Of a stretch of DNA of 19,835 nt, positions 7,489 through 19,723 are shown piece after piece. The position numbers were made by a program, and so were the translations under genes. Source of the DNA: a virus (Duplodnaviria; Heunggongvirae; Uroviricota; Caudoviricetes). The stretch lies in IMG/VR virus record IMGVR_UViG_2713897055_000003; one strand, given 5' to 3'. Positions within the stretch are counted from its first letter, which is position 1; each line of letters starts with the position of its first letter. The notes beneath the pieces are model-generated. The model made no database searches. It saw nothing but the letters and a program-made list of their open reading frames with translations, and was not told where the DNA came from.

Positions 7489-7911
7489 ATGTTCCTGAAA
7501 ACCGAATCATTTGAACATAACGGTGTGACCGTCACGCTTTCTGAACTGTCAGCCCTGCAGCGCATTGAGCATCTCGCCCTGATGAAACGGCAGGCAGAAC
7601 AGGCGGAGTCAGACAGCAACCGGAAGTTTACTGTGGAAGACGCCATCAGAACCGGCGCGTTTCTGGTGGCGATGTCCCTGTGGCATAACCATCCGCAGAA
7701 GACGCAGATGCCGTCCATGAATGAAGCCGTTAAACAGATTGAGCAGGAAGTGCTTACCACCTGGCCCACGGAGGCAATTTCTCATGCTGAAAACGTGGTG
7801 TACCGGCTGTCTGGTATGTATGAGTTTGTGGTGAATAATGCCCCTGAACAGACAGAGGACGCCGGGCCCGCAGAGCCTGTTTCTGCGGGAAAGTGTTCGA
7901 CGGTGAGCTGA
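7489..7911 (+). CDS. G: Tail assembly chaperone gpG
   Basis: 140-aa ORF MFLKTESFEHNGVTVTLSELSALQRIEHLALMKRQAEQAESD..., recognised as lambda gpG; RBS ggagag upstream. Confidence 0.95.
   Translation: MFLKTESFEHNGVTVTLSELSALQRIEHLALMKRQAEQAESDSNRKFTVEDAIRTGAFLVAMSLWHNHPQKTQMPSMNEAVKQIEQEVLTTWPTEAISHAENVVYRLSGMYEFVVNNAPEQTEDAGPAEPVSAGKCSTVS
7887..7893 (+). promoter_or_regulatory. Programmed -1 ribosomal frameshift slippery heptamer G GGA AAG (G to G-T fusion)
   Basis: Heptamer gggaaag at 7887-7893 is in the correct X XXY YYZ register relative to the G frame (codons GGA 7888-7890, AAG 7891-7893); the -1 frame is open from 7893 to 8327. This matches the known lambda G/T frameshift site. Confidence 0.85.
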
Positions 7912-8327
7912 GTTTTGCCCTGAAACTGGCGCGTGAGATGGGGCGACCCGACTGGCGTGCCATGCTTGCCGGGATGTCATCCACGGAGTATGCCGACTGG
8001 CACCGCTTTTACAGTACCCATTATTTTCATGATGTTCTGCTGGATATGCACTTTTCCGGGCTGACGTACACCGTGCTCAGCCTGTTTTTCAGCGATCCGG
8101 ATATGCATCCGCTGGATTTCAGTCTGCTGAACCGGCGCGAGGCTGACGAAGAGCCTGAAGATGATGTGCTGATGCAGAAAGCGGCAGGGCTTGCCGGAGG
8201 TGTCCGCTTTGGCCCGGACGGGAATGAAGTTATCCCCGCTTCCCCGGATGTGGCGGACATGACGGAGGATGACGTAATGCTGATGACAGTATCAGAAGGG
8301 ATCGCAGGAGGAGTCCGGTATGGCTGA
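7893..8327 (+). CDS. T: Tail assembly protein T portion, expected to be expressed only as a G-T fusion via -1 frameshift
   Basis: -1 frame ORF relative to G, open 7893..8327, encoding ...FDGELSFALKLAREMGRPDWRAMLAGMSSTEYADWHRFYSTHYFHDVLLDMHFSGLTYTV...; its end overlaps the H start. Confidence 0.85.
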   Translation: MFDGELSFALKLAREMGRPDWRAMLAGMSSTEYADWHRFYSTHYFHDVLLDMHFSGLTYTVLSLFFSDPDMHPLDFSLLNRREADEEPEDDVLMQKAAGLAGGVRFGPDGNEVIPASPDVADMTEDDVMLMTVSEGIAGGVRYG

Positions 8328-10881
8328 ACCGGTAGGCGATCTGGTCGTTGATTTGAGTCTGGATGCGGCCAGATTTGACGAGCAGATGGCCAGAGTCAGG
8401 CGTCATTTTTCCGGTACGGAAAGTGATGCGAAAAAAACAGCGGCAGTCGTTGAACAGTCGCTGAGCCGACAGGCGCTGGCTGCACAGAAAGCGGGGATTT
8501 CCGTCGGGCAGTATAAAGCCGCCATGCGTATGCTGCCTGCACAGTTCACCGACGTGGCCACGCAGCTTGCAGGCGGGCAAAGTCCGTGGCTGATCCTGCT
8601 GCAACAGGGGGGGCAGGTGAAGGACTCCTTCGGCGGGATGATCCCCATGTTCAGGGGGCTTGCCGGTGCGATCACCCTGCCGATGGTGGGGGCCACCTCG
8701 CTGGCGGTGGCGACCGGTGCGCTGGCGTATGCCTGGTATCAGGGCAACTCAACCCTGTCCGATTTCAACAAAACGCTGGTCCTTTCCGGCAATCAGGCGG
8801 GACTGACGGCAGATCGTATGCTGGTCCTGTCCAGAGCCGGGCAGGCGGCAGGGCTGACGTTTAACCAGACCAGCGAGTCACTCAGCGCACTGGTTAAGGC
8901 GGGGGTAAGCGGTGAGGCTCAGATTGCGTCCATCAGCCAGAGTGTGGCGCGTTTCTCCTCTGCATCCGGCGTGGAGGTGGACAAGGTCGCTGAAGCCTTC
9001 GGGAAGCTGACCACAGACCCGACGTCGGGGCTGACGGCGATGGCACGCCAGTTCCATAACGTGACGACGGAGCAGATTGCGTATGTTGCTCAGTTGCAGC
9101 GTTCCGGCGATGAAGCCGGGGCATTGCAGGCGGCGAACGAGGCCGCAACGAAAGGGTTTGATGACCAGACCCGCCGCCTGAAAGAGAACATGGGCACGCT
9201 GGAGACCTGGGCAGACAGGACTGCGCGGGCATTCAAATCCATGTGGGATGCGGTGCTGGATATTGGTCGTCCTGATACCGCGCAGGAGATGCTGATTAAG
9301 GCAGAGGCTGCGTTTAAGAAAGCAGACGACATCTGGAATCTGCGCAAGGATGATTATTTTGTTAACGATGAAGCGCGGGCGCGTTACTGGGATGATCGTG
9401 AAAAGGCCCGTCTTGCGCTTGAAGCCGCCCGAAAGAAGGCTGAGCAGCAGACTCAACAGGACAAAAATGCGCAGCAGCAGAGCGATACCGAAGCGTCACG
9501 GCTGAAATATACCGAAGAGGCGCAGAAGGCTTACGAACGGCTGCAGACGCCGCTGGAGAAATATACCGCCCGTCAGGAAGAACTGAACAAGGCACTGAAA
9601 GACGGGAAAATCCTGCAGGCGGATTACAACACGCTGATGGCGGCGGCGAAAAAGGATTATGAAGCGACGCTGAAAAAGCCGAAACAGTCCGGCGTGAAGG
9701 TGTCTGCGGGCGATCGTCAGGAAGACAGTGCTCATGCTGCCCTGCTGACGCTTCAGGCAGAACTCCGGACGCTGGAGAAGCATGCCGGAGCAAATGAGAA
9801 AATCAGCCAGCAGCGCCGGGATTTGTGGAAGGCGGAGAGTCAGTTCGCGGTACTGGAGGAGGCGGCGCAACGTCGCCAGCTGTCTGCACAGGAGAAATCC
9901 CTGCTGGCGCATAAAGATGAGACGCTGGAGTACAAACGCCAGCTGGCTGCACTTGGCGACAAGGTTACGTATCAGGAGCGCCTGAACGCGCTGGCGCAGC
10001 AGGCGGATAAATTCGCACAGCAGCAACGGGCAAAACGGGCCGCCATTGATGCGAAAAGCCGGGGGCTGACTGACCGGCAGGCAGAACGGGAAGCCACGGA
10101 ACAGCGCCTGAAGGAACAGTATGGCGATAATCCGCTGGCGCTGAATAACGTCATGTCAGAGCAGAAAAAGACCTGGGCGGCTGAAGACCAGCTTCGCGGG
10201 AACTGGATGGCAGGCCTGAAGTCCGGCTGGAGTGAGTGGGAAGAGAGCGCCACGGACAGTATGTCGCAGGTAAAAAGTGCAGCCACGCAGACCTTTGATG
10301 GTATTGCACAGAATATGGCGGCGATGCTGACCGGCAGTGAGCAGAACTGGCGCAGCTTCACCCGTTCCGTGCTGTCCATGATGACAGAAATTCTGCTTAA
10401 GCAGGCAATGGTGGGGATTGTCGGGAGTATCGGCAGCGCCATTGGCGGGGCTGTTGGTGGCGGCGCATCCGCGTCAGGCGGTACAGCCATTCAGGCCGCT
10501 GCGGCGAAATTCCATTTTGCAACCGGAGGATTTACGGGAACCGGCGGCAAATATGAGCCAGCGGGGATTGTTCACCGTGGTGAGTTTGTCTTCACGAAGG
10601 AGGCAACCAGCCGGATTGGCGTGGGGAATCTTTACCGGCTGATGCGCGGCTATGCCACCGGCGGTTATGTCGGTACACCGGGCAGCATGGCAGACAGCCG
10701 GTCGCAGGCGTCCGGGACGTTTGAGCAGAATAACCATGTGGTGATTAACAACGACGGCACGAACGGGCAGATAGGTCCGGCTGCTCTGAAGGCGGTGTAT
10801 GACATGGCCCGCAAGGGTGCCCGTGATGAAATTCAGACACAGATGCGTGATGGTGGCCTGTTCTCCGGAGGTGGACGATGA
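8320..10881 (+). CDS. H: Tail tape measure protein gpH
   Basis: 853-aa ORF (same length as lambda gpH) with long charged, helix-prone central region and Gly-rich segment near the C-terminus; position between T and M. Confidence 0.95.
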   Translation: MAEPVGDLVVDLSLDAARFDEQMARVRRHFSGTESDAKKTAAVVEQSLSRQALAAQKAGISVGQYKAAMRMLPAQFTDVATQLAGGQSPWLILLQQGGQVKDSFGGMIPMFRGLAGAITLPMVGATSLAVATGALAYAWYQGNSTLSDFNKTLVLSGNQAGLTADRMLVLSRAGQAAGLTFNQTSESLSALVKAGVSGEAQIASISQSVARFSSASGVEVDKVAEAFGKLTTDPTSGLTAMARQFHNVTTEQIAYVAQLQRSGDEAGALQAANEAATKGFDDQTRRLKENMGTLETWADRTARAFKSMWDAVLDIGRPDTAQEMLIKAEAAFKKADDIWNLRKDDYFVNDEARARYWDDREKARLALEAARKKAEQQTQQDKNAQQQSDTEASRLKYTEEAQKAYERLQTPLEKYTARQEELNKALKDGKILQADYNTLMAAAKKDYEATLKKPKQSGVKVSAGDRQEDSAHAALLTLQAELRTLEKHAGANEKISQQRRDLWKAESQFAVLEEAAQRRQLSAQEKSLLAHKDETLEYKRQLAALGDKVTYQERLNALAQQADKFAQQQRAKRAAIDAKSRGLTDRQAEREATEQRLKEQYGDNPLALNNVMSEQKKTWAAEDQLRGNWMAGLKSGWSEWEESATDSMSQVKSAATQTFDGIAQNMAAMLTGSEQNWRSFTRSVLSMMTEILLKQAMVGIVGSIGSAIGGAVGGGASASGGTAIQAAAAKFHFATGGFTGTGGKYEPAGIVHRGEFVFTKEATSRIGVGNLYRLMRGYATGGYVGTPGSMADSRSQASGTFEQNNHVVINNDGTNGQIGPAALKAVYDMARKGARDEIQTQMRDGGLFSGGGR

Positions 10882-11910: not shown

Positions 11911-12654
11911 ATGACACAGACAGAATCAGCGATTCTGGCGCACGCCCGGCGATGTGCGCCAGCGGAGTCGTGCGGCTTCGTGGTAAGCACGCCGGAGGGG
12001 GAAAGATATTTCCCCTGCGTGAATATCTCCGGTGAGCCGGAGGCGTATTTCCGTATGTCGCCGGAAGACTGGCTGCAGGCAGAAATGCAGGGTGAGATTG
12101 TGGCGCTGGTCCACAGCCACCCCGGTGGTCTGCCCTGGCTGAGTGAGGCCGACCGGCGGCTGCAGGTGCAGAGTGATTTGCCGTGGTGGCTGGTCTGCCG
12201 GGGGACGATTCATAAGTTCCGCTGTGTGCCGCATCTCACCGGGCGGCGCTTTGAGCACGGTGTGACGGACTGTTACACACTGTTCCGGGATGCTTATCAT
12301 CTGGCGGGGATTGAGATGCCGGACTTTCATCGTGAGGATGACTGGTGGCGTAACGGCCAGAATCTCTATCTGGATAATCTGGAGGCGACGGGGCTGTATC
12401 AGGTGCCGTTGTCAGCGGCACAGCCGGGCGATGTGCTGCTGTGCTGTTTTGGTTCATCGGTGCCGAATCACGCCGCAATTTACTGCGGCGACGGCGAGCT
12501 GCTGCACCATATTCCTGAACAACTGAGTAAACGAGAGAGGTATACCGACAAATGGCAGCGACGCACACACTCCCTCTGGCGTCACCGGGCATGGCGCGCA
12601 TCTGCCTTTACGGGGATTTACAACGATTTGGCCGCCGCATCGACCTTCGTGTGA
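11911..12654 (+). CDS. K: Tail tip assembly protein gpK; JAB/MPN (JAMM) metalloprotease domain plus NlpC/P60 cysteine peptidase domain
   Basis: 247-aa ORF; exact JAMM motif H-x-H-x7-S-x2-D at HSHPGGLPWLSEAD (nt 12112-12153); the C-terminal half carries a conserved Cys (GVTDCYTLF) and His residues consistent with NlpC/P60. The last 199 aa, from the Met at 12055, match the lambda gpK sequence as I recall it; the 48-codon N-terminal extension is in frame. Confidence 0.85.
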   Translation: MTQTESAILAHARRCAPAESCGFVVSTPEGERYFPCVNISGEPEAYFRMSPEDWLQAEMQGEIVALVHSHPGGLPWLSEADRRLQVQSDLPWWLVCRGTIHKFRCVPHLTGRRFEHGVTDCYTLFRDAYHLAGIEMPDFHREDDWWRNGQNLYLDNLEATGLYQVPLSAAQPGDVLLCCFGSSVPNHAAIYCGDGELLHHIPEQLSKRERYTDKWQRRTHSLWRHRAWRASAFTGIYNDLAAASTFV

Positions 12655-13223
12655 AAACTGGTGCTGAAGCCATTCGGGCGCTGGCCACACAGCTCCCGGC
12701 GTTTCGTCAGAAACTGAGCGACGGCTGGTATCAGGTACGGATTGCCGGGCGGGACGTCAGCACGTCAGGGTTAACGGCGCAGTTACATGAGACTCTGCCT
12801 GACGGCGCTGTGATTCATATTGTTCCCAGAGTCGCCGGAGCCAAGTCAGGGGGCGTATTCCAGATTGTCCTGGGAGCTGCCGCCATTGCCGGATCATTCT
12901 TTACCGCCGGAGCCACCCTTGCAGCATGGGGGGCAGCCATTGGGGCCGGTGGTATGACCGGCATCCTGTTTTCTCTCGGTGCCAGTATGGTACTTGGTGG
13001 TGTGGCGCAGATGCTGGCACCGAAAGCCAGAACTCCCCGTACACAGACAACGGATAACGGTAAGCAGAACACCTATTTCTCCTCACTGGATAACATGGTT
13101 GCCCAGGGCAATGTTCTGCCTGTTCTGTACGGTGAAATGCGCGTGGGGTCGCGGGTGGCTTCTCAGGAGATCAGCACGGCAGACGAGGGGGACGGTGGTC
13201 AGGTTGTGGTGATTGGTCGCTGA
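12552..13223 (+). CDS. I: Tail tip assembly protein gpI; N-terminal ubiquitin-like (beta-grasp) domain ending in Gly-Gly, hydrophobic Gly/Ala-rich C-terminal region
   Basis: 223-aa ORF MAATHTLPLASPGMARICLYGDLQRFGRRIDLRVKTGAEAIRALATQLPAFRQKL...VPRVAGAKSGG (GG codons at 12849-12854), recognised as lambda gpI; overlaps the K 3' end by 103 nt in another frame. Confidence 0.9.
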   Translation: MAATHTLPLASPGMARICLYGDLQRFGRRIDLRVKTGAEAIRALATQLPAFRQKLSDGWYQVRIAGRDVSTSGLTAQLHETLPDGAVIHIVPRVAGAKSGGVFQIVLGAAAIAGSFFTAGATLAAWGAAIGAGGMTGILFSLGASMVLGGVAQMLAPKARTPRTQTTDNGKQNTYFSSLDNMVAQGNVLPVLYGEMRVGSRVASQEISTADEGDGGQVVVIGR

Positions 13224-13241
13224 TGCAAAATGTTTTATGTG

Positions 13242-13261
13242 AAACCGCCTGCGGGCGGTTT
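13242..13261 (+). terminator. Short stem-loop between I and J (aaaccgcc tgcg ggcggttt), weak terminator-like element
   Basis: Inverted repeat read directly in the 60-nt I-J spacer; the downstream T run is interrupted, so function is uncertain. Confidence 0.3.
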
Positions 13262-13283
13262 TGTCGTTTATGGAGCGTGACGA

Positions 13284-16200
13284 ATGGGTAAAGGCAGCAG
13301 TAAGGGGCATACCCCGCGCGAAGCGAAGGACAACCTGAAGTCCACGCAGCTGCTGAGTGTGATCGATGCCATCAGCGAAGGGCCGGTTGAAGGTCCGGTG
13401 GATGGATTAAAAAGCGTGCTGCTGAACAGTACGCCGGTGCTGGACAGTGAGGGGAATACCAATATATCCGGCGTCACGGTGGTGTTCCGGGCCGGTGAGC
13501 AGGAGCAGACACCGCCGGAGGGATTTGAATCCTCCGGCTCCGAGACGGTGCTCGGTACAGAAGTGAAATATGACACGCCGATCACCCGGACCATCACGTC
13601 GGCAAACATTGACCGTCTGCGTTTTACTTTCGGCGTGCAGGCACTGGTGGAAACCACCTCAAAGGGGGACAGGAATCCATCGGAAGTCCGCCTGCTGGTT
13701 CAGATACAACGTAACGGTGGCTGGGTGACGGAAAAAGACATCACCATTAAGGGTAAAACCACTTCACAGTATCTGGCCTCGGTGGTGGTGGATAACCTGC
13801 CGCCGCGCCCGTTCAGTATCCGGATGCGCAGGATGACGCCGGACAGCACCACAGACCAGCTGCAGAACAAAACGCTCTGGTCGTCATACACCGAAATTAT
13901 CGATGTGAAACAGTGCTACCCGAACACGGCACTGTTCGGCGTGCAGGTGGACTCGGAGCAGTTCGGCAGCCAGCAGGTGAGCCGTAATTATCATCTGCGC
14001 GGGCGTATTCTGCAGGTGCCGTCAAATTATAACCCGCAGACGCGGCAATACAGCGGTATCTGGGACGGAACGTTTAAACCGGCATACAGCAACAACATGG
14101 CCTGGTGTATGTGGGATATGCTGACCCATCCGCGCTACGGCATGGGGAAACGTCTTGGTGCAGCGGATGTAGATAAATGGGCGCTGTATGTCATCGGCCA
14201 GTACTGCGACCAGTCGGTGCCGGACGGCTTTGGCGGCACGGAGCCGCGCATCACCTGTAATGCGTACCTGACCACACAGCGCAAGGCGTGGGATGTGCTC
14301 AGTGATTTCTGCTCGGCGATGCGCTGTATGCCGGTATGGAACGGGCAGACGCTGACGTTCGTGCAGGACCGACCATCAGATAAGGTGTGGACCTATAACC
14401 GCAGTAATGTGGTGATGCCGGATGATGGCGCGCCGTTCCGCTACAGCTTCAGCGCCCTGAAGGACCGCCATAATGCCGTTGAGGTGAACTGGATTGACCC
14501 GAACAACGGCTGGGAGACGGCGACAGAGCTTGTTGAAGATACGCAGGCCATTGCCCGTTACGGTCGTAACGTCACGAAGATGGATGCCTTTGGCTGTACC
14601 AGCCGGGGGCAGGCGCACCGCGCCGGGCTGTGGCTGATTAAAACGGAACTGCTGGAAACGCAGACCGTGGACTTCAGCGTGGGTGCGGAAGGGCTTCGCC
14701 ATGTACCGGGGGATGTCATTGAAATCTGCGATGATGACTATGCGGGTATCAGCATCGGCGGGCGCGTGCTGGCGGTGAACAGCCAGACCCGGATGCTGAC
14801 GCTCGACCGTGAAATCACGCTGCCATCCTCCGGTACCACGCTGATAAGCCTGGTTGACGGAAGTGGCAATCCGGTCAGCGTGGAGGTCCAGTCCGTCACC
14901 GACGGCGTGAAGGTAAAAGTGAGCCGTGTTCCTGACGGCGTTGCCGGATACAGCGTGTGGGGGCTGAAGCTGCCGACGCTGCGCCAGCGCCTGTTCCGCT
15001 GCGTGAGTATCCGTGAGAACGATGACGGCACGTATGCCATCACCGCCGTGCAGCATGTACCGGAAAAAGAGGCCATCGTGGATAACGGGGCGCACTTTGA
15101 CGGCGACCAGAGCGGCACGGTGAATGGTGTCACGCCGCCAGCAGTGCAGCATCTGACCGCCGAAGTCACTGCAGACAGCGGGGAATATCAGGTGCTGGCG
15201 CGATGGGACACGCCGAAGGTGGTGAAGGGCGTGAGCTTCCTGCTTCGCCTGACCGTGGCAGCGGATGACGGCAGTGAGCGGCTGGTCAGCACGGCCCGGA
15301 CGGCGGAAACCACTTACCGCTTCACACAACTGGCTCTGGGGAACTACAGGCTGACAGTCCGGGCAGTAAATGCGTGGGGGCAGCAGGGCGATCCGGCGTC
15401 GGTATCGTTCCGGATTGCCGCACCGGCAGCGCCGTCGCGGATTGAGCTGACGCCGGGCTATTTTCAGATAACCGCCACGCCGCATCTTGCGGTTTATGAT
15501 CCGACGGTACAGTTTGAGTTCTGGTTCTCGGAAAAGCGGATTGCGGATATCAAGCAGGTTGAAACCACAGCACGCTATCTTGGCACGGCGCTGTACTGGA
15601 TAGCCGCCAGTATCAATATCAGGCCGGGCCATAATTATTATTTTTACGTTCGCAGTGTGAACACCGTTGGCAAATCGGCATTCGTGGAGGCTGTTGGTCA
15701 GCCGAGTGATGACGCATCCGGCTATCTGGATTTTTTCAAAGGCGAGATAGGGAAAACCCATCTGGCTCAGGAGCTGTGGACGCAGATTGATAACGGTCAG
15801 CTTGCGCCTGACCTGGCTGAAATCAGGACATCCATTACGGATGTCAGCAATGAAATCACACAGACCGTCAATAAGAAACTGGAAGACCAGAGTGCAGCGA
15901 TCCAGCAGATACAGAAGGTTCAGGTTGATACAAATAATAATCTGAACAGCATGTGGGCTGTGAAGCTGCAGCAGATGCAGGACGGACGCCTTTATATCGC
16001 GGGTATCGGTGCCGGTATTGAGAACACCCCCGACGGCATGCAGAGTCAGGTGCTGCTGGCGGCAGACAGGATTGCGATGATTAATCCTGCAAATGGCAAC
16101 ACAAAACCGATGTTTGTTGGTCAGGGTGATCAGATATTCATGAATGAAGTGTTCCTGAAATATCTGACGGCTCCCACCATTACCAGCGGCGGTAATCCTC

Positions 16201-16763
16201 CTGCATTTTCCCTGACACCGGACGGAAAGCTGACCGCTAAAAATGCAGATATCAGTGGCAGTGTGAATGCGAACTCCGGGACGCTCAACAACGTTACGAT
16301 AAATGAGAACTGTCAGATTAAAGGGAAACTGTCAGCCAACCAGATTGAAGGCGATATTGTCAAAACAGTGGGTAAGGCTTTCCCGCGGGACTCCCGGGCA
16401 CCGGAGCGGTGGCCATCAGGGACCATTACCGTCAGGATTTATGACGATCAGCCTTTTGACAGGCAAATTGTTATTCCGGCGGTGGCATTCTGCGGCGCTA
16501 AACATGAGCGGGAGAATAACGATATTTATTCGTCATGCCGCCTGATAGTGAAGAAAAATGGTGCTGAAATTTATAACCGTACCGCGCTGGATAATACGCT
16601 GATTTACAGTGGTGTTATTGATATGCCAGCTGGTCACGGCCACATGACGCTGGAGTTTTCGGTGTCAGCATGGCTGGTAAATGACTGGTATCCCACAGCA
16701 AGTATCAGCGATTTGCTGGTTGTGGTGATGAAGAAAGCCACCGCAGGCATCAGTATCAGCTGA
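13284..16763 (+). CDS. J: Central tail fibre / host specificity protein gpJ
   Basis: 1159-aa ORF starting [58 protein letters not shown]..., recognised as lambda gpJ. The total length differs from my recollection of lambda J (1132 aa), and the C-terminal ~150 aa (...[19 protein letters not shown]) do not match my recollection of the lambda receptor-binding end. Confidence 0.9.
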
Positions 16764-17483: not shown

Positions 17484-17494
17484 GTGGGGTGAAT

Positions 17495-19723
17495 ATGGCA
17501 GTAAAGATTTCAGGTGTACTGAAAGACGGCACAGGAAAACCGGTACAGAACTGCACAATCCAGCTGAAAGCAAAACGTAACAGTACCACGGTGGTGGTGA
17601 ACACGCTGGCCTCAGAAAATCCGGATGAAGCCGGGCGTTACAGCATGGACGTTGAGTACGGTCAGTACAGCGTTATTCTGTTGGTGGAAGGATTCCCGCC
17701 GTCACATGCCGGGACCATCACCGTGTATGAAGATTCCCGACCCGGTACGCTGAATGATTTTCTCGGTGCCATGACGGAGGATGATGCCCGTCCTGAGGCA
17801 CTGCGCCGTTTTGAACTGATGGTGGAAGAGGTGGCGCGTAACGCGTCCGCGGTGGCACAGAACACGGCAGCCGCGAAGAAGTCAGCCAGCGATGCCAGCA
17901 CATCAGCCCGTGAGGCGGCAACCCATGCGACTGATGCTGCAGGCTCAGCACGCGCAGCCAGCACGTCAGCCGGACAGGCTGCTTCGTCGGCTCAGTCAGC
18001 GTCTTCCAGCGCAGGAACGGCATCAACAAAGGCCACTGAAGCATTAAAAAGTGCTGCCGCTGCAGAGTCCTCAAAAAGCGCGGCAGCTACCAGTGCCAGT
18101 GCCGCGAAAACGTCAGAAACGAATGCTGCAGCGTCACAACAATCAGCAGCCACTTCTGCATCCACCGCGACTACGAAAGCGTCAGAAGCTGCCACCTCAG
18201 CCCGGGATGCGTCGGCTTCAAAAGAGGCGGCAAAATCATCAGAAACGAACGCATCCTCGAGCGCCAGTAGCGCAGCTTCCTCGGCAACGGCGGCAGCAAA
18301 TTCCGCGAAGGCGGCAAAAACGTCCGAGACGAACGCCAGGTCTTCTGAGACGGCAGCGGGACAGAGCGCCTCAGCTGCGGCAGGCTCAAAAACAGCGGCT
18401 GCGTCGTCTGCCAGTGCCGCGTCAACAAGTGCCGGGCAGGCCTCAGCCAGTGCCATCGCCGCCGGAAAATCGGCAGAAAGCGCCGCATCATCCGCTTCAA
18501 CAGCCACAACGAAGGCTTGCGAAGCCACTGAACAGGCCAGCGCAGCAGCGAGGTCAGCTTCCGCAGCGAAGACATCCGAAACGAACGCGAAAGCGTCGGA
18601 AACCAGCGCAGAATCCTCAAAAACGGCTGCCGCATCGTCCGCCAGTTCGGCGGCGTCATCGGCCTCATCGGCGTCTGCTTCAAAAGATGAGGCGACCAGA
18701 CAAGCGTCAGCAGCGAAGGGCAGCGCCACGACGGCATCCACGAAGGCAACAGAGGCTGCTGGCAGTGCGACGGCGGCAGCACAGAGCAAGAGTACGGCAG
18801 AATCCGCAGCAACGCGCGCCGAGACAGCAGCAAAACGGGCAGAGGATATTGCATCCGCTGTGGCGCTTGAGGATGCGAGCACGACGAAAAAGGGGATAGT
18901 ACAGCTCAGTAGTGCGACTAACAGCACTTCCGAGTCACTGGCGGCAACACCAAAAGCCGTTAAGGCCGCGTATGACCTGGCTAACGGGAAATACACCGCA
19001 CAGGATGCAACGACAGCACAGAAAGGGATAATCCAGCTAAGCAGCGCGACCAACAGCACGTCTGAAACGCTTGCCGCGACACCAAAGGCAGTAAAAACAG
19101 CCTATGACAATGCTGAGAAACGTCTGCAGAAAGATCAGAACGGTGCGGATATCCCTGGCAAAGACACCTTTACGAAAAATATTGGTGCCTGCCGTGCCTT
19201 TGGTGGGTCAGTAAGCACAATAACAGGAAACTGGACGACTGCACAGTTTATCGAGTGGCTGGATTCTCAGGGAGCATTTAACCATCCCTACTGGATGTGC
19301 AAGGGTTCCTGGTCTTATGGCAATAATAAAATCATTACTGATACTGACTGCGGTAATATTCATCTCGCCGGAGCTGTCATTGAAGTAATGGGGATAAAGT
19401 CAGCGATGACGATCCGCATTACCACACCGACCACCTCCACTGGTGGTGGAACAACTAACGCCCAGTTTACCTATATTAATCACGGAACAGATTATTCACC
19501 TGGCTGGCGAAGGGACTATAACTCCAGAAATAAGCCAACGGCATCAGAGATCGGGGCGTTACCGTCAGGTGGAACAGCAGTATCATCAGTTAATCTGTCT
19601 TCAAAAGGTCGGGTAACCGCGCTGACAGACAATACGCAGGGGGCAACAGGTCTTGAGTTATACGAGGTGTATAACAACGGATATCCAACAGCGTATGGAA
19701 ATGAAGGCAGGCGATTGCTTTAA
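17495..19723 (+). CDS. stf: Side tail fibre protein Stf-like
   Basis: Product begins [62 protein letters not shown]..., recognised as the lambda Stf N-terminus; long Ala/Ser/Thr-rich shaft, tandem 'KGI(V/I)[11 protein letters not shown](S/T)LAATPKAVK' repeats and a distinct C-terminal domain. ATG 17495 is preferred over the GTG at 17489 given by the ORF track. Confidence 0.85.
17840..18860 (+). repeat. Low-complexity Ala/Ser/Thr-rich repeat region encoding the Stf shaft (recurring AAKTSETNA / SSETNA units)
   Basis: Recurrent gcg/gca/tcx/acg codon blocks and repeated motifs such as acgtcagaaacgaatgc and tccgagacgaacgcc; this same composition generates large spurious ORFs in other frames and on the minus strand. 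Confidence 0.7.

Follow-up and report, generated by a model that had tools for sequence, protein, structure and literature searches.

Genes K and I of this phage are tail-tip assembly genes of a near-lambda phage, and K is very probably a two-domain peptidase that frees I from its ubiquitin-like domain at tip assembly, with no conjugation involved. The window (the whole stretch of 19,835 nucleotides that was analysed) was ~99% identical to lambda in this region, with 98.8% DNA identity over L-K-I. The genes were essentially those for lambda gpK (TAPK) and gpI (TAPI), in the same M-L-K-I-J order and with point differences only: one residue was changed in K (compared with the same ORF of lambda imm21) and two in I (compared with gpI of PDB 8iyk, to whose gpI chains I was 99% identical). 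In the comparison with lambda imm21, 19 of 22 differences fell at third codon positions of the gene hit; viral contigs fetched for a codon-position analysis of the overlap, none of them below 97% identity to the window, gave no further information.

The K-I pairing is real, yet it and the cleavage model were already known, since cleavage of the ubiquitin-like domain from I by the JAB domain of K was predicted in 2006 (Iyer, Burroughs and Aravind; PMC1779556) and cleavage of I by K was reported as experimentally shown in a 2025 talk from the Davidson laboratory (meeting summary). A literature search found no primary paper or preprint on gpK cleavage of gpI, only the meeting report. The original prediction, made from the letters of this stretch, had described K and I as an arrangement known from comparative studies; this agrees with Iyer et al. 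2006 (PMC1779556) and, as such studies were cited in the prediction itself, was recognition of known biology and not a discovery. The Pfam families, the solved virion structures and the 2025 report of an experimental demonstration were likewise known beforehand. Domain identities, catalytic residues, fold, the conserved junction and conserved synteny were established in the present analysis, while cleavage of I by K, and the absence from virions of K and of all but the C-terminal part of I, are taken from papers.

The features of K are as follows.

11911-12654, plus strand: gene K, tail tip assembly protein K, 247 aa (ORF; starts 5 nt past the stop of L)
11917-12222, plus strand: JAB/MPN+ (JAMM) metalloprotease domain, K residues 3-104 (Pfam PF14464)
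11965-11967, plus strand: codon of Glu19 (in AESCG), the catalytic Glu that precedes the rest of the JAMM motif; it falls before the classical K start
12055-12057, plus strand: Met49 of K, the classical lambda K start (199 aa), with GGAGG just upstream
12112-12153, plus strand: JAMM motif HSHPGGLPWLSEAD, K residues 68-81 (H68, H70, S78, D81), an exact fit to H.H.{7}S..D
12241-12582, plus strand: NlpC/P60 (C40) cysteine peptidase domain, K residues 111-224 (Pfam PF00877)
12271-12273, 12469-12471 and 12505-12507, plus strand: Cys121, His187 and His199 of K (codons read directly)
12550-12630, plus strand: conserved C-terminal tail of K, residues 214-240 (KWQRRTHSxWRHxxW...FTGIxNDL; homologue conservation)

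Both peptidase domains of K scored above the curated Pfam thresholds, as the original prediction had anticipated: Prok-JAB (PF14464) matched residues 3-104 over profile positions 3-112 of 114 (E 6e-14, 52.3 bits; cut-off, 25), and NLPC_P60 (PF00877) matched residues 111-224 over its full length, positions 1-105 of 105 (E 6e-13, 49.2 bits; cut-off, 23), which confirmed the C-terminal Cys/His domain. The exact JAMM motif claimed for K was also confirmed, and the catalytic pattern E...HxHx7Sx2D was present at exact spacing in E19, H68, H70, S78 and D81, all five of which were invariant in 17 homologues and in relatives down to 41% identity. The nearest solved relatives of the JAB domain were stand-alone prokaryotic JAMM proteases; sequence matches in the PDB were 2kks and 2kcq (Mov34/MPN/PAD-1) and Pyrococcus furiosus JAMM1 (5lda), with which the motif aligned and in which Glu19 of K was matched by the E-x-C-G. 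Zinc-dependent cleavage after a ubiquitin-like domain is the predicted activity of the JAB domain. C121, H187 and H199 were invariant in homologues down to 41% identity and, by the usual NlpC/P60 pattern, are the likely catalytic triad of K. AlphaFold2 (AF2) run on K as a single sequence, without an alignment, gave a pLDDT of 37 and an unusable model.

The start of K matters for these assignments, because with a start at Met49 K loses Glu19 along with roughly half of its JAB domain. The 247-aa form was the commonest among database entries, residues 8 to 48 were conserved as protein, and the 247-codon ORF, with the whole JAB domain, was also intact in lambda. In the classical and widely copied 199-aa annotation of lambda K, the JAB domain is therefore left without its catalytic Glu.

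The features of I are as follows.

12552-13223, plus strand: gene I, tail tip assembly/plug protein I, 223 aa (ORF; alternative start Met14 at 12591)
12552-12654, plus strand: K/I overlap, 103 nt as drawn, with I in the -1 frame relative to K
12591-12842, plus strand: ubiquitin-like beta-grasp domain, I residues 14-97 (Lambda_tail_I Pfam match, AF2 fold)
12837-12842, plus strand: G96-A97, family-conserved end of the ubiquitin-like domain and, by homology, predicted scissile position (after A97)
12849-12854, plus strand: G100-G101 in a variable linker, the Gly-Gly of the original prediction
12855-13022, plus strand: hydrophobic Gly/Ala-rich segment, I residues 102-157, with two predicted membrane helices, H1 and H2 (hydropathy)
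12951-13220, plus strand: I residues 134-223, the C-terminal portion that in virions forms a trimeric plug inside the tail-tip lumen (PDB 8iyk, 8k35, 8xcg, 9e7m)

I belongs to the Lambda_tail_I family (Pfam PF06805; residues 14-97, E 1e-28, 99.8 bits; cut-off, 23.8); like the two K matches, this one lies far beyond chance. An N-terminal domain of about 100 residues (1 to 101) had been proposed; the domain is present, but its folded part comprised residues 14 to 96, as given by the Pfam match, by AF2 strands running from 14-19 through 87-93, and by pLDDT values below 50 from residue 97 onward. The AF2 model of the domain was a beta-grasp fold, the best structural match of which was SAMP1, followed by MoaD, ThiS/CysO (CysO structures 3dwg, 3dwm and 4n6e) and Urm1 and then by ubiquitin and SUMO; the beta-grasp fold proposed for the N terminus of I was thus borne out by the predicted model and the fold search. 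Profile links to the ThiS/MoaD clade were weak. The I family profile matched ThiS/MoaD 4n6e_B at E 0.26 and the MoaD-related 1v8c at E 0.54, values that are individually not significant; hhalign aligned the domain with MoaD at E 0.003 but with a probability of 11% (0.6% for a second alignment); and even at a relaxed threshold (E up to 10) no ThiS/MoaD family was matched when the domain was scanned against Pfam. The beta-grasp assignment of I therefore rests on the predicted model, and the link to the ThiS/MoaD clade had to come from the fold search. Recovery of the domain with the beta-grasp clade by PSI-BLAST at e=1e-3 has been reported by Iyer et al. (PMC1779556).

The end of the ubiquitin-like domain was then placed with an alignment of 58 sequences (lambda gpI and 57 representatives). 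P92 was present in 58/58, G96 in 56/58 and A, S or G at position 97 in 57/58 (A in 44, S in 10 and G in 3), such that the first Gly is retained and the second is usually Ala. G96 aligned with the penultimate Gly of ThiS/MoaD 4n6e_B, Escherichia coli MoaD and ubiquitin. The linker at 98-101 was of variable length, with G101 in 45/58, and many homologues were without a Gly-Gly pair. By this alignment, the equivalent of the ubiquitin Gly-Gly in I is G96-A97 and not G100-G101; the Gly-Gly originally predicted at 12849-12854 does exist there and is not homologous to the C-terminal Gly-Gly of ubiquitin.

Kyte-Doolittle windows were above 1.1 over I residues ~97 to 157, in agreement with the hydrophobic Gly/Ala-rich segment claimed after the domain, and G108 was invariant across homologues. 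[quoted passage not shown] The hydrophobic helices of gpI have been described as H1/H2 (PMC11101478). In virions, gpI has been modelled at residues 135 to 223 (PMC10721106) and 134 to 222 (PMC12617516), and one study reports gpI as resolved from residue 101 onward (PMC11101478). Mass spectrometry of lambda virions did not detect gpK, which is also absent from the tail structures (PMC10721106, PMC12617516). For gpI, it found a single peptide in virions; the coverage of 9.87% fits no tryptic peptide but the C-terminal one, 202-223, and the N-terminal domain offers several good tryptic peptides. The missing cryo-electron microscopy density of the N-terminal domain could also mean disorder, and the mass spectrometry evidence consists of one peptide.

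The gene order M-L-K(JAB+NlpC)-I-J was conserved in distant Psychrobacter and Pasteurellaceae prophages. PHROG families exist with profiles that span JAB/K and I jointly, one of which (phrog_35166) matched K residues 3 to 83, the JAB part only, plus I residues 13 to 210, from which a JAB-I fusion without NlpC/P60 seems to exist. The different-frame overlap of K and I claimed at 103 nt was found as drawn and was identical in lambda, but its length is less certain. A GAGAGG lies 11 nt upstream of the I start at 12552; in most of the distant I homologues, however, the first residue aligns with Met14, and many E. coli copies are annotated at 210 aa, so Met14 may be the true start of I, with a real overlap of 64 nt (12591-12654). 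Elsewhere the overlap was 58 nt (Pasteurellaceae prophage) or 1 nt (Psychrobacter prophage), and since the C-terminal tail of K was also kept in the latter, the overlap alone does not explain its conservation. Fusion of K to I by programmed -1 frameshifting, suggested by the -1 frame of I and by K-I fusion proteins in databases, was rejected, as the overlap held no X XXY YYZ slippery heptamer; five such fusion proteins switched frame at five different points, which marks the switches as separate indels or errors of assembly. A protein of 2783 aa that looked poly-ubiquitin-like, with 23 matches to I residues 10 to 63, was rejected as a low-complexity tandem-repeat translation, and its Pfam hits were unrelated and spurious-looking.

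In the mechanism that we propose, I would be made as a precursor consisting of the ubiquitin-like beta-grasp domain (14-96), two hydrophobic helices and a C-terminal plug domain, and K, combining a JAB/MPN+ zinc metalloprotease with an NlpC/P60 cysteine peptidase, would act as a nonvirion assembly enzyme. The JAB domain of K would recognise the ubiquitin-like domain of I in the manner of a deubiquitinase with ubiquitin, and the cut would fall just past the conserved Gly-Ala, after A97 or at most a few residues on, at G100-G101, and would release the ubiquitin-like domain from I. The helices and plug would stay in the tip lumen as a trimer gripping the C terminus of the tape measure protein and would later insert into the host outer membrane. 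The ubiquitin-like domain probably serves the membrane-active segment as a removable module, both for solubility and as a checkpoint. Both the exact scissile bond, placed at A97 from the alignment, and the choice of the JAB over the NlpC/P60 domain as the cutter are what we infer. An extended version, with K as a dual tail-tip maturation protease whose JAB domain cuts I at G96-A97 and whose NlpC/P60 domain cuts gpH to give gpH*, seems unlikely.

The division of labour within K might also be reversed, with the NlpC/P60 domain freeing the ubiquitin-like domain and the JAB domain only binding it or serving another substrate. NlpC/P60 domains have a papain-like fold, as do most eukaryotic deubiquitinases, the Cys-His-His triad of K is as invariant as its JAMM residues, and this role for NlpC/P60 was raised by Iyer et al. 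(PMC1779556), some phages having TAPI beside an NlpC/P60-only K. Intact and invariant JAMM catalytic residues are, however, not expected of a mere binding module, and the closest relatives of the JAB domain cleave after ubiquitin-like proteins. With the apparent JAB-I fusion that lacks NlpC/P60 and a conference summary that credits the 'deubiquitinating domain', these points make the reversed assignment quite unlikely.

NlpC/P60 enzymes are typically peptidoglycan endopeptidases, and K could instead be mainly such an enzyme, used at infection, its place beside I reflecting structural gene order. TIGR02219, 'putative phage cell wall peptidase', matched K weakly (E 5e-5; 23.9 bits against a cut-off of 81.9), the NlpC/P60-only g14 of RcGTA has peptidoglycan-degrading activity and a possible place in the tail lumen (PMC7296036), and no enzyme has yet been named for the crossing of the cell wall by lambda (PMC11101478). 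But gpK is missing from virions, both by mass spectrometry and in structures, and cannot therefore act at infection, and a cell wall function leaves the conserved, intact JAB domain and its pairing or fusion with a ubiquitin-like protein unexplained; we regard a mainly muralytic K as very unlikely. An additional role of the NlpC/P60 domain of this kind would be compatible with the trimming of I.

Still less probable is an uncleaved I, with K as a nonproteolytic chaperone and the flexible ubiquitin-like domain invisible in cryo-electron microscopy. Disorder would account for the missing density, and the authors of the tail structures call the N-terminal domain only 'unresolved' or 'unseen'. Against this stand the two complete and invariant catalytic sites of K, the C-terminal position of the sole virion gpI peptide despite the good N-terminal candidates, the need for a trimer of 10-kDa domains to fit in or pass through a closed tip, and the conference report of cleavage.

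The original prediction had left open a processing or a conjugation step, of which processing is supported (Iyer 2006; 2025 report) and conjugation is not. No E1 or E2 (ThiF, UBC) was found among the 14 main ORFs of the window scanned by profile (portal, protease C, D, E, FI, V, H, M, L, K, I, J, Lom and side fibre, with FII, Z, U, G and T left out), which matched only head, tail and Lom families, or among the K-I neighbours in the Psychrobacter and Pasteurellaceae prophages; to our knowledge, lambda has no E1-like or E2 gene. K-I is thus a processing and not a conjugation system. That the C-terminal glycine of the released domain becomes joined to another tail protein, in a true conjugation step, can practically be dismissed: the domain has the fold of the MoaD/ThiS/SAMP/Urm1 clade, members of which are activated at a C-terminal Gly-Gly, and lambda I has a Gly-Gly at 100-101, but no E1-like adenylating enzyme or E2 was encoded by the ORFs scanned, the conserved end of the domain is Gly followed by Ala or Ser, and no extra density or mass on tail proteins has been reported (PMC10721106, PMC12617516, PMC11101478).

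Trimming of I by K, the reading that we prefer, has its closest mechanistic analogue in CysO-Mec+ and QbsE-QbsD, where a JAMM protease trims residues past the C-terminal Gly of a ThiS/MoaD-like protein, so that, as in K-I, a linear extension is cut off a beta-grasp domain. There, the beta-grasp protein itself is the product and carries sulfur once released, whereas in K-I the useful product would be the C-terminal fragment, with the beta-grasp domain presumably discarded. The archaeal SAMP/JAMM pairs (HvJAMM1, P. furiosus JAMM1-SAMP2) likewise set a stand-alone JAMM/MPN+ protease on a MoaD/ThiS-type beta-grasp protein. SAMPs, however, are free modifiers, conjugated to lysines by an E1 and removed by JAMM proteases, while I is a structural precursor with the ubiquitin-like domain at its N terminus, in a system with no E1, and the cut would be the one-off maturation of a linear fusion. 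K is also no member of the desampylase family, the NCBIfam profile of which it matched at E 5e-7 and 29.8 bits, under the 130-bit cut-off.

Among tail modules, F-type pyocins (PA0639/PA0640) and other lambda-like modules encode homologous K-like and I-like proteins; in the F-type pyocin particle the I homologue is visible only at residues 127 to 200 and the K homologue is absent, and chains of PDB 9l9p and 25vf matched I at E 1e-20 and 1e-17. F-type pyocins are bacteriocins and not phages, with moderate identity to I. The g14 gene of RcGTA lies at the position of K, between the hub and central-fibre genes. It encodes an NlpC/P60 peptidase required for tail formation (PMC7296036), but its product has 150 residues, no JAB domain, demonstrated peptidoglycan degradation and a possible place in the particle, whereas K has a JAB domain and is not in virions. 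The plug of phage T5 pb3 has the same place and proposed role as the gpI plug, namely, tube closure and possible outer membrane insertion (PMC10721106), but is an insertion within the hub protein, for which no ubiquitin-like prodomain or dedicated protease has been described.

To what was known, this analysis adds G96-A97 as the homologous end of the ubiquitin-like domain, as judged from the alignment, and the loss of the catalytic Glu from the 199-aa annotation of K. K-I is a clean viral case of a ubiquitin-like domain and a deubiquitinase-type protease with no conjugation machinery, in which the ubiquitin-like domain of I would be a removable prodomain that times the insertion of a membrane-active plug in a phage tail tip. 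It is thereby relevant to the prokaryotic origins of ubiquitin signalling and to the ordered assembly of siphophage and tailocin tips.

The K and I genes were located where the original prediction had placed them, sharing 103 nt, with I read in the -1 frame compared with K; the predicted JAMM motif was an exact fit to HxHx7Sx2D:

11911-12654, plus strand, K, 247 aa
12112-12153, plus strand, JAMM motif HSHPGGLPWLSEAD (K residues 68-81)
12552-13223, plus strand, I, 223 aa
12849-12854, plus strand, Gly100-Gly101 of I

Pfam searches, which had been suggested for K, matched Prok-JAB to K residues 3-104 (E = 6e-14), NLPC_P60 to K residues 111-224 (E = 6e-13) and Lambda_tail_I to I residues 14-97 (E = 1e-28). 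Because all three scores were well above the curated cut-offs, the domain assignments of K and I are not due to chance. K residues E19, H68, H70, S78 and D81 (JAMM) and C121, H187 and H199 (NlpC/P60) were invariant in 17 enterobacterial homologues (67-96% identity) and in the Psychrobacter and Pasteurellaceae prophage homologues (41-52% identity). Among solved structures, the closest in sequence to the JAB domain were small prokaryotic MPN+ proteins and JAMM1 of Pyrococcus furiosus, and an NCBIfam 'desampylase' match to K was sub-threshold. Outside both peptidase domains, the C-terminal tail of K (residues about 214-240, nt 12550-12630; THSxWRHxxW...FTGIxNDL) was strongly conserved, being kept at 41% overall identity and in a prophage with a K/I overlap of only 1 nt; this tail might serve for docking to I or to the tip complex. 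The same K-I pairing was described by Iyer et al. 2006 (PMC1779556), as the prediction's reference to comparative studies implied: TAPI consists of a ThiS/MoaD-like domain whose C-terminal glycine is conserved, then a Gly-rich linker and a C-terminal domain; TAPK, which flanks it, has JAB and NlpC/P60 domains, and its JAB domain was proposed to free the ubiquitin-like domain.

The window corresponds to the left arm, with the head and tail genes, of a near-identical relative of lambda. L-K-I (2.1 kb) was 98.8-98.9% identical in DNA sequence to lambda and close relatives, in which the features are annotated as tail tip proteins L, K, I and J, and the remaining large ORFs were assigned by Pfam to lambda portal, protease C, D, E, FI, V, H, M, L, J, Lom and side tail fibre. 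Compared with the matching lambda imm21 ORFs, K differed by 1 residue and I by 2; I was 99% identical to the gpI chains of PDB 8iyk, 8iyl, 8k35 and 8xcg. Over 11911-13223 the window and lambda imm21 differed at 22 nucleotides, every one of them downstream of 12458, and K was identical over its first 548 nt; this clustering could reflect a recombination (mosaic) boundary within K. GGGAAAG at 7887-7893, where the G ORF ends, is the lambda G-T frameshift site, the T ORF (7893-8327) lying in the -1 frame. J (13284-16763) encoded 1159 aa with a GpJ C-terminal receptor-binding domain, and 17489-19723 held one 744-aa ORF with a prophage tail fibre N-terminal domain and fibre repeats. In laboratory lambda, J has 1132 aa and the side-fibre gene is broken by a frameshift; by contrast, the side fibres may be intact in this relative, and its receptor-binding region may be a variant. 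Between I and J, a GC-rich hairpin at 13243-13270 (AAACCGCC-TGCG-GGCGGTTT, then TTGTCGTTT) looks like a terminator within the late operon; the fold of 13221-13290 reached -21 kcal/mol, its z-score versus shuffles being only -1.9, and the hairpin was not among the terminators listed by a simple scan.

The reading of K from 11911, carrying the whole JAB domain, was upheld. The classical lambda start at Met49 (nt 12055), behind GGAGG, gives 199 aa, without Glu19 and with roughly half of the JAB domain missing. Since, in addition, the 247-codon ORF is intact in lambda also and is the commonest form in databases, and residues 8-48 are conserved at the protein level, the longer K is, as judged from these comparisons, the functional reading. 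It begins 5 nt after the L stop with no obvious Shine-Dalgarno sequence upstream, and is possibly translated by translational coupling; both products might be made.

The ubiquitin-like nature proposed for the N-terminal domain of I was borne out by the predicted fold, the sequence-profile links to ThiS/MoaD proteins being suggestive only (E = 0.26 and 0.54). An AlphaFold2 model of residues 1-110, built from a 70-sequence alignment that included relatives at 28-52% identity, had a mean pLDDT of 79 (82-93 over residues 11-90), with strands at 14-19, 29-33, 59-64 and 87-93, helices in between and confidence below 50 from residue 97 onward. A permissive Pfam scan of the domain returned nothing besides the family's own model. 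As modelled, the domain is a ubiquitin-like beta-grasp of the sulfur-carrier/SAMP clade, in agreement with Iyer et al. A database protein of 2783 aa (P0288) with 23 matches to gpI residues 10-63 was considered as a poly-ubiquitin-like protein and rejected as a translated tandem repeat ('FGDFENLSRRMDLKVFADAIRA' units); this false positive is to be excluded from family alignments.

The Gly-Gly pair was present as described, followed by a strongly hydrophobic segment to about residue 157, but it did not hold up as the ubiquitin-type terminus. In an alignment of lambda gpI with 57 representatives at ≤53% identity to it (n = 58), P92 and G108 were invariant, G96 was found in 56 sequences, and position 97 was A, S or G in 57, whereas linker 98-101 varied in length and composition (G101 in 45/58), many members having no Gly-Gly. 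The family profile '...IVPvvaG' paired with '...ILPAVAGG' at the C-terminus of 4n6e_B, a ThiS/MoaD protein, and weak hhalign alignments matched G96 to Gly80 of the 81-aa E. coli MoaD and to Gly75 of the 76-aa ubiquitin. As all three were concordant (gpI IHIVPRVAGA with ubiquitin LHLVLRLRGG), the putative counterpart of ubiquitin's terminal Gly-Gly is G96-A97. From this correspondence we infer the exact bond and predict that gpI is cut after A97. gpI in the closed tail is stated to be resolved from residue 101 onward (PMC11101478), which fits a cut after A97, because a cut after G101 would make that impossible.

M-L-K(JAB+NlpC/P60)-I-J order recurred in one Psychrobacter and one Pasteurellaceae prophage, their I proteins being 46-47% identical to that of the window; K and I overlap by 1 and 58 nt, respectively, so the arrangement does not depend on a long overlap. 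I may start either at ATG 12552, with GAGAGG 11 nt upstream, or at ATG 12591 (Met14), and the overlap would thus be 103 or 64 nt. The 13-residue extension was found in enterobacterial relatives and lies outside the folded domain; Met occupied the Met14 position in 44/58 sequences, distant homologues matched from their own first residues there, and annotated E. coli copies of 210 aa number in the thousands. A programmed -1 frameshift from K to I was rejected: no slippery heptamer occurs in the overlap, and the frame switches at a different point from one E. coli K-I fusion to the next, so these fusions look like indels or errors. PHROG profiles (phrog_28576, phrog_35166 and phrog_31) and database proteins (P0009, P0013, P0014, P0151 and P0236) combine I with K or with just the JAB part of K, or link J with a region resembling I. 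In one profile the match to K is confined to the JAB part (residues 3-83), alongside I, and this may be a genuine fusion; JAB-I fusions were noted by Iyer et al., with which the profiles agree. Profiles spanning both proteins lend support to a likely functional K-I link.

We consider it highly probable that I is made as a precursor matured by K, a non-virion enzyme: the JAB domain of K would recognise the beta-grasp domain and then cut just after it, and the hydrophobic helices and plug would stay in the tip. In cryo-EM of lambda and Ur-lambda (PMC10721106, PMC12617516), a trimer of gpI 134/135-223 plugs the tip lumen, holds the gpH C-terminal helix and touches gpJ, and the two hydrophobic helices have been proposed to enter the outer membrane upon tip opening (PMC11101478). 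Virion mass spectrometry detected gpI by one peptide (9.87% coverage), equal to 22 residues, and the sole 22-residue tryptic peptide is C-terminal 202-223. According to a 2025 meeting report, apart from which our literature search found no primary paper on gpI cleavage by gpK, cleavage occurs only once gpI is bound to other tip proteins, which enforces stepwise assembly. A peptidoglycan-hydrolase role for the NlpC/P60 domain, with RcGTA g14 (PMC7296036) as a candidate parallel, is difficult to square with mass spectrometry, which found no gpK in virions. That this domain makes the gpH to gpH* cleavage is conceivable but pure speculation; that cut falls in a Gly-rich hydrophobic stretch resembling gpI 102-150. 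In gpH, residues about 685-745 (10372-10554) form such a stretch (LSMMTEILLKQAMVGIVGSIGSAIGGAVGGGASASGGTAIQAAAAK), and a cut near 710-720 would yield the roughly 14-kDa C-terminal fragment described. Of the 'processing or conjugation' originally suggested, processing agrees with the proposal of Iyer et al. and the meeting report; conjugation of the released domain to another protein is unlikely, no E1- or E2-like gene being present among the Pfam-scanned window ORFs or in the two prophage neighbourhoods, and the system therefore processes I rather than conjugating it. It is likewise improbable that I stays uncut with an N-terminal domain that is merely disordered.

Precursor maturation by K thus remains the preferred reading. 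The K-I observation is confirmed and its interpretation supported, yet this is published, textbook-adjacent biology of the best-studied phage; what is added is the G96-A97 refinement and the annotation point on K.
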